This document shows, piece after piece, positions 24,499 through 25,563 of a stretch of 64,000 nt of DNA. The notes under the pieces were generated by a model that saw only the letters and a list, made by a program, of their open reading frames with translations, was not told where the DNA came from and made no database searches. Every line of letters starts with the position of its first letter. Position 1 is the stretch's first letter. The stretch spans positions 45,120-109,119 of the forward strand of contig DCJL01000017.1 of the NCBI GenBank assembly GCA_002320035.1. The letters run 5' to 3'. Made by a program: the position numbers and the translations under genes. Origin of the DNA: Clostridiales bacterium UBA1701. GTDB taxonomy: Bacteria; Bacillota; Clostridia; Oscillospirales; Oscillospiraceae.

Positions 24499-25563
24499 TC
24501 AATCATCAATACCATATCTACGTCGAAGTTTGCGAAGTGCCTTAGCTTCAATCTGACGAACACGCTCTCTTGTAACACAGAATTTTTGACCGATTTCGTC
24601 AAGCGTATATTCATGGTCATAACCAATACCATGGCGAAGACGAAGCACCTCTTGTTCACGGTATGTAAGTTTTGATAGTTTTATTTGGAGGTCATCTGTG
24701 TCAAAGTGCCTATCAACTAACGAAATCATATTTTCATACCCGATACCATCATCTGAGAACAACAACTCATTCTCTTCATTTTCCGACAATTCTTCAATGC
24801 TTTCATAAGGAGCAAGATAGTCAAATAACCGCCTCGCCTCAACTAAAGTACATTCAAGCTCGGTTGCGATGCTCTGCAAAAGTTCAATACCCGGCTCTGT
24901 TCTGTCTTCAATATCGCCGAAATAATCTTCCATATTATCATAGATAGCGAAAAGCTTGTCTTTAATATGAATCGGAAAATAAACTGACGGATTAAGCGTT
25001 GGAGCATCTCTCATTATGTACTGTCTTACCCATAGTGGAAAGTATGATGCGAAGTTTTCCTGACGGGCAGTTTCGTATTTATCTATCGATACATGAAGAC
25101 CCAGCATAGCGTTCTGAATAGTTTCATCCAAGGGAAGATGATATCTTTTTGCGTGTACTAATGCGATTCTCACAGCCACCTTCATATACATCTCAAAAAT
25201 ACGGTTCCGAGCATATGCATTTTTGAGTTTCACCTGCGGCATCAGATTCATCCACTCTCTGTGCTGTGGCGGTTTTATTCCACGAATGTATTCAATGAAG
25301 TCCGTGAAGGTATCATCTATCTCCAAAACCTCTGAAAACACTTCTTCGTAATCAACATTGCTTCTGTCGTACTCGTCCTCTTCATCATCGGTCAAGGCAT
25401 CATCGCGAATAATGACACCTTTCGACAACAGATGATCACAGATATACTCTACATCGAATAACGAAATTCCATTCTCTTCAAGTACATCAAAGATATGATC
25501 TTCGGAGATAAAACCGTGCACGGTATATTCCTGATATAATTTTTCAATGATTCCCTCGTGCAC
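24499..25563 (-). CDS. Sigma-70 family RNA polymerase sigma factor, full-length RpoD-like architecture
   Basis: An acidic N-terminal linker, region 2 ([16 protein letters not shown]) and region 4.2 ([30 protein letters not shown]). The GTG start lies 29 nt after the preceding gene. Confidence 0.85.
   Translation of the reverse strand: [354 protein letters not shown]

Follow-up and report, generated by a model that had tools for sequence, protein, structure and literature searches.

The described system closest to the locus considered here is PbeABCD, a module of four genes located beside phosphorothioate genes (Xiong et al. 2019, PMC6459918; Aravind lab 2024, PMC10853773). The Pbe/CxC component lists comprise an HKD-SF2 helicase, a small protein, a CxC ABC ATPase, DndE, methylases and MTaX1 (PMC10853773), and modification-dependent anti-phage activity is known only for a distant haloarchaeal system (PMC6459918). 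The window, i.e. the whole stretch of 64,000 nucleotides (nt) analysed here (contig DCJL01000017.1 of Clostridiales bacterium UBA1701, positions 45,120 to 109,119), contains the same PbeA-B-C-D order with two differences. The tested PbeABCD is Dnd-linked, with a PbeC about 24% identical to that of the window (measured on haloarchaeal plasmid homologues), whereas the clade of the window is linked to the Ssp modification genes. Moreover, the described PbeABCD has four genes and no sigma factor, while the clade of the window has a fifth gene which encodes a sigma-70-family protein of 354 amino acids (aa), further referred to as the sigma gene and the sigma protein. This five-gene, sigma-containing, Ssp-coupled Pbe clade is not in the published component lists: beyond an insert in DndH, none of the papers in the library searched names a sigma factor as a component of Pbe, Ssp or Dnd (PMC6459918, PMC10853773, PMC8092258, PMC12914056). 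An earlier note, made from the letters of this DNA alone, had claimed the same for the Dnd, Ssp and PLD-helicase systems, which holds for the component lists, although the precedent of MzaA (see below) must be added.

The linkage of the sigma gene to Pbe was followed in two samples. Among homologues of the sigma protein, the best 120 clusters (61-100% identity) were all about 354-365 aa long except for a few truncated fragments, and in 11 of 11 contexts the gene started about 20-30 nt after PbeD. The other sample started from PbeC: out of roughly 5,300 homologues given by an exhaustive search, 150 diverse representatives were aligned, and the best 80 of at least 500 loci were retained, with PbeC 44-97% identical to that of the window. 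Because of this span, the loci are not copies of one recently spread element. Open reading frames (ORFs) were read there from stop to stop in six frames and scanned with a hidden Markov model of the sigma family; the gene starts in these loci are therefore approximate. A full-length sigma-like ORF (160-670 bits) was present on the same strand directly after PbeD in 71 of the 80 loci. Its start lies 480-590 nt past the end of PbeC, apart from three loci in which the distance is about 920-1080 nt. The contig end cuts another seven loci, two of which still showed the sigma N-terminus; of the 73 relatives with enough downstream sequence, 71 have the sigma gene after PbeD. The earlier note had suggested scoring the adjacency of a sigma gene and had allowed for its absence from essentially all homologous loci; the count came out the other way. 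Many of the loci are metagenome bins and the 80 are a best-scoring subset, so the counts represent no census.

The carriers belong to Bacillota, Spirochaetota, Bacteroidota, Pseudomonadota and other phyla, the closest relatives being gut Oscillospiraceae and Ruminococcaceae. Cultured carriers include Pseudobacteroides cellulosolvens ATCC 35603, Acetobacterium bakii DSM 8239, Clostridium ragsdalei P11, Anaerotignum propionicum, Bacillus sp. FJAT-27445, Paenibacillus lemnae, Treponema bryantii and Roseburia amylophila, as well as members of Saccharibacillus, Butyrivibrio, Eubacterium and Catenisphaera. Metagenome-assembled genomes (MAGs) add Bacteroidales, Akkermansia, Victivallaceae, Caldisericota, Alphaproteobacteria, Bacteriovorax and one Methanobrevibacter bin. 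This last bin, together with the identical sigma proteins in Prevotella, Selenomonadaceae and Emergencia bins, suggests mis-binning or recent transfer; the Methanobrevibacter sp. contig (L088, JAFRFD010000059.1) carries a complete Ssp-Pbe-sigma cassette and is probably a mis-binned bacterial one. In the 80 loci, Ssp modification genes adjoin Pbe wherever the contig is long enough, and the gene order of the window is kept wherever the contig reaches far enough, with two kinds of exception. In a Bacillus and a Saccharibacillus locus (L043, L055) the Ssp homologues come after the sigma gene, which stays with Pbe, and in eight others (L026-L030, L044, L050, L088) the same Pbe-sigma block is combined with another Ssp clade (SspC about 30% identical). 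Overall, one large clade of Ssp-coupled PbeABCD has the sigma gene as an integral fifth member, inherited together with the rest. This PbeC clade was absent from the plasmid collection (best match 26% identity), and a tblastn search of plasmids and phages gave no close relative of the sigma protein among the matches listed, which were generic RpoD-type sigmas of about 26-34% identity. The best full-length plasmid match, from an Alkaliphilus megaplasmid, is not linked to Pbe.

The product of the gene is a diverged member of the sigma-70 family in which the sigma architecture is complete. A profile from 28 homologues aligned end to end with Staphylococcus aureus SigA (8x6f_E; residues 3-353 on 20-361, E 1e-37), matched dozens of other solved RpoD/SigA chains and ran through region 2 of the solved structures with E values of 1e-35 to 1e-38. 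The AlphaFold model (mean confidence, pLDDT, 75.6) retrieved only sigma factors in a Foldseek search against the PDB, the best being a Bacillus subtilis SigA model with 369 aligned columns. Matches to viral structures were weaker than those to cellular sigmas, and there is therefore no sign of a phage origin. Among the Pfam models, Sigma70_r4 scored 60.8 bits (cut-off 24.1) and Sigma70_r2 22.4 bits over residues 123-184, slightly below the cut-off of 24, and there was no match to r3, r1_1 or r1_2. The match to TIGR02937 is one to a generic superfamily model.

The protein is about 23-28% identical to SigA and shares with SigA/RpoD the collinear order of N-terminal domain (here region 1.1-like), linker, regions 1.2-2.4, region 3 and region 4, as well as the D, Q and GL residues of region 2.2 and part of regions 2.3-2.4. 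In contrast to SigA/RpoD, region 3 is unconserved, several positions for -10 recognition and melting are changed, region 1.2 has a PPQ motif of its own, and the gene sits in a mobile defence cassette. The protein also fails every RpoD equivalog cut-off (108 bits versus 572 for PRK09210 and 104 versus 555 for PRK05658), and a housekeeping RpoD identity was rejected. The extracytoplasmic function (ECF, group 4) sigmas possess only regions 2 and 4 within about 170-250 aa and are usually encoded together with an anti-sigma factor. An ECF assignment was rejected as well, as the 354-aa protein has an N-terminal domain and a segment of region 3 length; none of the neighbouring genes matched an anti-sigma domain in Pfam, PADLOC or NCBIfam. 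The N-terminal 95 residues have a net charge of -24. They align with the SigA N-terminus and keep a region 1.1-type motif (family consensus Gy.t.d.i.d...l...g.i), even though the Pfam r1_1 model does not match. In the acidic linker the pLDDT is low at aa 51-70 and high at aa 71-90, and it reaches 78-89 across most of regions 1.2-2.4. The linker also has a D....DY motif conserved at 90% or more in the family. The earlier note had read the protein as a full-length RpoD-like rather than ECF-like sigma, with a DDEEDEYD linker, a region 2 motif and a region 4.2 close to consensus and with no anti-sigma gene nearby, all of which was borne out; of the Pfam domains that it expected, region 4 was confirmed, region 2 fell slightly short, and regions 3 and 1.2 were missing.

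Conservation within the family is unevenly distributed along the protein. The family-specific PPQ..E...L of region 1.2, N.yAr.R of region 2.1, d..q....GL..A..kyd of region 2.2, and F..y...wi.q.i.R and y.P.H of regions 2.3-2.4 are kept family-wide, and the region 4.2 helix vTRERiRQIE.Ka..kl is at least 90% conserved, its conserved residues matching SigA. No family-wide conservation was found in region 3, part of which the sigma profile fails to align in L027 and L041. The positions which we take to be equivalent to W433, Y425, N383 and T440 of Escherichia coli sigma-70, mapped through the alignment to S. aureus SigA, are not conserved; several residues used for -10 melting are among them. Sigma is the fastest-evolving gene of the cassette: its median identity to the window protein across the loci is the lowest (37%), compared with 68% for SspD, 62% for PbeA, 57% for SspB, 54% for both SspA and PbeD, 51.5% for PbeC, 49.5% for PbeB and 48% for SspC. 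In close pairs its nonsynonymous substitution rate (dN) is higher than in PbeA, PbeC and PbeD by a factor of 3-6. The ratio to the synonymous rate (dN/dS) is 0.06-0.13 in such pairs, which indicates purifying selection and therefore a functional gene, and the divergence of sigma tracks that of PbeC (Spearman 0.64).

The fifth position was also inspected in sister Pbe clades, sampled by a metagenome scan from the most distant PbeC representatives (best 80 of at least 489 loci). Most of their PbeC proteins are about 31-37% identical to that of the window and most still adjoin SspC, SspA and PbeA. A full sigma was present in only three of the 80 loci, all of them belonging to the sigma clade. The genes after PbeD in the sister clades form three groups, namely a family of 300-580 aa, a GmrSD enzyme and a protein of about 900-1020 aa. 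The last of these, found in nine loci (three incomplete), combines two RNA_pol_A_CTD domains (109 bits), HhH and Sigma70_r4. Its Sigma70_r4 domain aligns with the sigma family at an hhalign probability of 96% and has the (T/S)RER(V/I/A)RQ helix in common with it. Furthermore, a distant, plasmid-borne Pbe locus of the alphaproteobacterium Pontibrevibacter encodes, directly upstream of PbeA, a 1017-aa protein with Sigma70_r4 (51.6 bits) and the helix VTRERIRQIE; the distant plasmid-borne Pbe loci of Pseudanabaena, Lactiplantibacillus and Rhizobium (23-26% identity) had no sigma. Like the sigma protein, the alpha-CTD/sigma-4 and Pontibrevibacter proteins occur in Pbe loci and carry the same recognition helix. 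Unlike it, they have long extra regions and lack region 2 and region 1.1. They cannot be sigma factors. Since all three kinds are encoded in Pbe loci, proteins assembled from the promoter-recognition parts of RNA polymerase recur in these loci in at least three architectures.

Several further observations were made on these fifth genes. The alpha-CTD/sigma-4 genes lie directly after PbeD in L121, L132, L133, L135, L166 and L170 (at about 9550-12700), and in L014 (1621-4674) such a gene lies directly before PbeA. Their products carry about 570 further residues outside the recognised domains, in a long C-terminal region. The alpha-CTD part gives an additional match, to a segment of the BREX kinase PglW. 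The 300-580-aa family consists of three related clusters, most members having about 300-370 aa and some up to 580 aa (for example L108 9568-10518, L151 9544-10545 and L126 9508-10443 among L108-L165). It had no match in Pfam, NCBIfam or PADLOC, and the idea that its members are hidden sigmas was rejected at a profile-profile probability below 2%.

Sigma-related modules have precedents in anti-phage defence. The best NCBIfam and PADLOC match of the sigma protein is MzaA (NF041931, 119 bits; PDLC02203, 81 bits) of the mzaABCDE system, which is validated in E. coli and whose MzaA is termed "a sigma factor" (PMC9523054). Both are sigma-70-family modules in a defence operon, and the match spans regions 2-4. 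However, the MzaA profile has about 726 positions, of which the sigma protein covers only 476-704, near the C-terminal end, and the partners of MzaA are of MutL and Z1 type as opposed to Pbe and Ssp in the window. With a score far below the NF041931 cut-off of 800 bits and without MzaB-E neighbours, the sigma protein is not MzaA. A DndH variant with a sigma-related helix-turn-helix (HTH) insert is another precedent for a sigma-derived module in defence; in other defence proteins such modules are single fused domains, whereas in the window the full-length sigma stands free. Restriction-modification systems have controller (C) proteins, which are likewise DNA-binding proteins encoded within the cassette and could time restriction relative to modification. 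They are, however, small HTH dimers usually encoded at the 5' end, and the Ssp-Pbe cassette often has a small HTH gene and an operator of its own upstream of sspD.

The coordinates of the features are collected in the table below. The sigma gene closes an operon with the order SspD-SspB-SspC-SspA-small ORF-PbeA-PbeB-PbeC-PbeD-sigma. The nine upstream genes, two of which are small ORFs (77 and 60 aa), are on the same strand, with successive junctions of 12 nt, 18 nt, an overlap, 8 nt, 61 nt, overlaps of 17, 10 and 4 nt, and finally 29 nt (25564-25592) between the end of pbeD and the sigma gene. Re-reading the sequence thus reproduced what had been reported from the letters: a GTG-started ORF with a GGGGGTG ribosome-binding site 29 nt past the 177-aa gene, preceded by nine same-strand genes that overlap or lie no more than 61 nt apart, and closing a phosphorothioation defence operon. 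The strand, which had been left unstated, is the minus strand. No terminator-like site was found between pbeD and the sigma gene in a scan of 24000-39000 and the gap is too short for a promoter, so co-transcription of both genes is expected by default.

Table. Features of the Ssp-Pbe-sigma cassette in the window, with the basis of each assignment
Feature	Position in the window	Strand	Basis and remarks
Sigma-70-family gene, conserved fifth gene of the Pbe module	24499..25563	minus	354 aa, GTG start
Region 4 (aa 291-354), with recognition helix	24502..24693	minus	Sigma70_r4; pLDDT 87-92
Region-3-equivalent (aa 201-290), poorly conserved	24694..24963	minus	no Pfam r3 match; pLDDT 47-73
Regions 1.2-2.4 (aa 96-200), putative core-binding and -10-type module	24964..25278	minus	Pfam r2 and family conservation
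Acidic linker (aa 56-95), contains DDEEDEYD	25279..25398	minus	net charge -14
Region 1.1-like N-terminal domain (aa 1-55)	25399..25563	minus	SigA alignment; pLDDT about 77-83; net charge -10
Ribosome-binding site GGGGGTG	25569-25575	minus	direct sequence reading; 5 nt before the GTG start
PbeD, 177 aa, putative DndE-like partner of the ABC ATPase	25593..26126	minus	weak matches and position
PbeC, 661 aa, CxC-type ABC ATPase	26123..28108	minus	PADLOC PbeC, 372 bits
PbeB, 60 aa, overlaps both neighbours	28099..28281	minus	ORF between PbeA and PbeC
PbeA, 735 aa, PLD/HKD nuclease and SF2 helicase	28265..30472	minus	PADLOC, 833 bits; TIGR04095, 504 bits
Small ORF, 77 aa, between SspA and PbeA	30534..30767	minus	ORF reading; no family match
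SspA, cysteine desulfurase	30776..31951	minus	Pfam, PADLOC, NCBIfam
SspC	31945..35565	minus	PADLOC SspC
SspB	35584..36462	minus	DUF4007
SspD	36475..38193	minus	PAPS reductase domain
Ssp phosphorothioate modification module, SspA-SspD	30776..38193	minus	Pfam, PADLOC and NCBIfam matches
Palindrome GTCC-N8-GGAC (38243-38228), then TGTGATATT	38213..38243	minus	upstream of sspD; direct reading

What had been called a PLD-helicase system is, judging from the PADLOC, Pfam and NCBIfam gene matches and from the CxC cysteines of PbeC, PbeABCD, a CxC-ABC ATPase/DndE system coupled here to SspABCD. The zinc hook cysteines C343 and C345 of PbeC are invariant in 128 homologues, and PbeA contains the Pfam domains PLDc_2, ResIII and Helicase_C. 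PbeD matches weakly (PADLOC PbeD, 17.8 bits; TIGR04062 dnd_assoc_4, 20.9 bits versus a cut-off of 74; faintly the Pfam model DNA_S_mod_dnd_assoc_4 in its relatives), and it follows PbeC in 77 of the 80 loci, the contigs of the remaining three ending too soon. At the place of PbeB a 58-aa gene is called in relatives, and phmmer finds PbeB in 77 of the 80 loci. The small ORF between SspA and PbeA is conserved in position, with a 96-aa gene in relatives. An identity of the restriction genes with SspFGH was rejected: SspFGH resembles DndFGH, to which its authors likened it (Walker A motif in SspF, FtsK-like SspH). The SspD homologue matches the BREX type 4 PAPS reductase BrxP (254 bits) far better than PADLOC SspD (49 bits), SspC also matches BrxC/PglY, and the BREX type 4 phosphorothioation genes treated in PMC12914056 stand close to this Ssp clade.

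The flanks of the cassette (17137-24295) encode DUF6076, an AAA_25 ATPase, a NikA-like protein, a relaxase, ParB and a tyrosine integrase, and the same set is present in L001. As relaxase, ParB and integrase genes adjoin it, the cassette is cargo of an integrative mobilisable element. Only about 200 nt (24296-24498) separate the sigma gene from the convergent DUF6076 gene. Past the sigma gene the neighbours vary among the relatives, from a 169-aa gene with DndB, or peptide deformylase with a TIR protein, to a 1036-aa gene with a UvrD-like helicase. In L001 (11143-12935), whose sigma is 98% identical, the 169-aa protein and a 423-aa DndB-family gene follow, both of which are missing from the window; in L007 this pair sits between SspC and SspA. 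In L008 (11097-16344) and L009 (3656-8901) sigma is followed by a 1034-1036-aa protein without a domain match and a UvrD-like helicase of about 705 aa, which may be another defence gene pair.

A promoter and terminator scan of 24000-39000 gave no enrichment over shuffled sequences. One candidate, TTGACA-17-TATATT (11/12 match, 30426-30398), is inside the PbeA coding region and was treated as chance. A search of 70 cassettes and their upstream regions gave no TTGACA/TATAAT promoter conserved in position, except for a TTGACA-17-TATCAT about 168 nt upstream of PbeA in one subclade (L026-L030, L050, L056). The palindrome upstream of sspD, followed by TGTGATATT, probably represents the operator and -10 box of this gene, and it looks like the operator of a controller protein, with no good -35 in the sspD upstream region for the sigma protein to read. 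A similar layout of a palindrome and a -10 box was seen in about a dozen of 27 regions upstream of sspD; a strict regular-expression search was too narrow and missed known cases. The palindrome (variants GTAC/GGAC) lies 9-11 nt upstream of the -10 box in the window, L060, L063-L065, L071, L072, L075, L081, L087 and L088, and in many of the loci it comes after a small HTH gene of Xre or excisionase type. In the window, an insertion sequence of the IS3 family (38267-39659) is located about 25 nt upstream of this operator and its -10 box. Its two transposase ORFs overlap (39126..39596 and 38293..39312) and encode rve and HTH domains, and its terminal inverted repeats are AAGTAGACATT...GGACACC and GGTGTCCAC...GTCTACTT. 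The element may have taken the place of the regulator gene that relatives have upstream, or have pushed it away.

An important question is what a sigma protein does in a restriction module. Our tentative reading, to which we give a probability of about 0.4, is that it serves as a subunit of the module that recognises RNA polymerase or promoters. Region 1.1 of primary sigmas keeps free sigma off DNA, and its acidic counterpart is predicted to be retained here. As region 2.2, a region 1.1-like domain and the region 4.2 helix are retained, binding to core polymerase and to -35 DNA would be expected: the region 2.2 residues for the beta' clamp helices, together with region 4, would contact the core, and the region 4.2 helix, identical to that of housekeeping sigmas, would read -35-type (TTGACA-like) promoter DNA. 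Promoters or initiating polymerases could then be the place where the sigma protein couples or loads PbeA (helicase-nuclease), PbeC (ABC ATPase) and PbeD (putative DNA binder), and where transcribed foreign DNA without phosphorothioate marks would be engaged; as an adaptor of this kind it would not act on the island as a plain transcription factor. All three architectures have the -35 helix in common, and two alpha-CTDs plus one sigma-4 make up the upstream-promoter-binding set of the holoenzyme, which fits promoter recognition as the shared selected function. The relaxed region 3 and promoter-melting residues appear to favour an adaptor over a classical initiator, and so do the non-sigma fifth genes of other clades, the lack of a position-conserved consensus promoter in 70 cassettes and the operator and -10 box that sspD has of its own; MzaA is a precedent. 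Several points, however, weigh against such a subunit. Its binding to RNA polymerase, DNA or Pbe proteins is deduced from conserved residues only, and a genuine working sigma, too, would retain just these parts (region 1.1, core-binding residues, -35 helix). That the same position means the same job across Pbe clades is an unproven assumption. The commonest alternative fifth gene, the family of roughly 300-580 aa, has no detectable relation to sigma, and one clade has at this position the GmrSD enzyme, which may be an independent system. L045 and L061 have enough sequence and an otherwise intact cassette but no sigma gene, which may thus be dispensable, and in experiments the archaeal PbeABCD was functional with no sigma (PMC6459918). 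The Methanobrevibacter cassette of L088, if truly archaeal, would speak against an RNA polymerase-dependent role. Archaea do not possess a sigma-dependent RNA polymerase.

Unlikely, though not far-fetched, is a working cassette-specific sigma which would join the host core and transcribe ssp and pbe, either for host-independent expression or as a delay or feedback timer that lets modification precede restriction, as controller proteins do in restriction-modification systems. Purifying selection would suit it, and so would the complete architecture, with its region 1.1-like domain, its core-binding residues and a -35 helix of consensus type. The same applies to the location on an integrative mobilisable element in several phyla and to the terminal place in the operon, from which the product would accumulate after the modification genes had been expressed, while fast evolution could mean adaptation to different host polymerases. 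But a position-conserved consensus promoter is lacking in the 70 cassettes, and sspD has its own palindromic operator and -10 box, often an HTH gene, and no good -35. Overall, the comparative data seem to lean away from plain transcription initiation because of the non-sigma fifth genes in sister clades, the unconserved -10 melting residues (to which the unconserved region 3 can be added) and the missing conserved promoter. The fast evolution (median identity 37% versus 48-68% for the other genes, and the elevated dN) is also what a decoy or guard would show, i.e. a sigma look-alike that phage hijackers of sigma or RNA polymerase bind or modify, thereby licensing or activating the Pbe effector. 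A region 4.2 identical to housekeeping sigma in an otherwise diverging protein, and the two alpha-CTDs with sigma-4 in another clade, point in this direction as well, since phage take-over proteins classically target both alpha-CTD and sigma-4. For the Menshen system, a sensor role of region 1.1-like domains has been proposed (PMC12065111), which might be a parallel. Nevertheless, a decoy is somewhat less probable still: dN/dS is well below 1 with no overall sign of diversifying selection, the best-conserved residues are DNA contacts of the recognition helix, which a protein-binding decoy would not obviously have to keep, and modification-based restriction in principle needs no sensor of phage proteins. 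The least credible explanation by far is a chance neighbour or unrelated cargo, an option the earlier note had left standing beside autonomous transcription and a decoy. Two cassettes and the tested archaeal PbeABCD do without the gene (PMC6459918), yet its same-strand adjacency in 71 of 73 informative loci from several phyla and its retention with Pbe where Ssp was swapped or moved show that it is not cargo. Its constant spacing while flanking genes and the Ssp module vary, and a divergence that follows PbeC, also speak against this option.

Returning from these alternatives to promoter recognition, there is perhaps a near-even chance of the broader proposition that Pbe clades recruited transcription parts, either a full sigma or two alpha-CTDs with sigma-4, so that restriction is loaded at or triggered from promoters or initiating polymerase, or so that these parts act as decoys. 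The five-gene Pbe variant escapes current four-gene annotation models and is common in gut and anaerobic bacteria; being widespread and present in cultured strains, it is directly testable. It is a second case of sigma modules in anti-phage systems besides MzaA, and a much better populated one. The sigma gene would link phosphorothioate defence to the transcription machinery in an undescribed way. In phosphorothioate defence only a minority of target sites is modified, yet self DNA is spared, and Pbe is reported to act without obvious DNA degradation. The sigma-like subunit and the alpha-CTD/sigma-4 proteins point to promoter or RNA polymerase recognition as a missing part of target choice or sensing. 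If true, promoter loading or a decoy would represent a mode of target choice or sensing so far undescribed for restriction systems.

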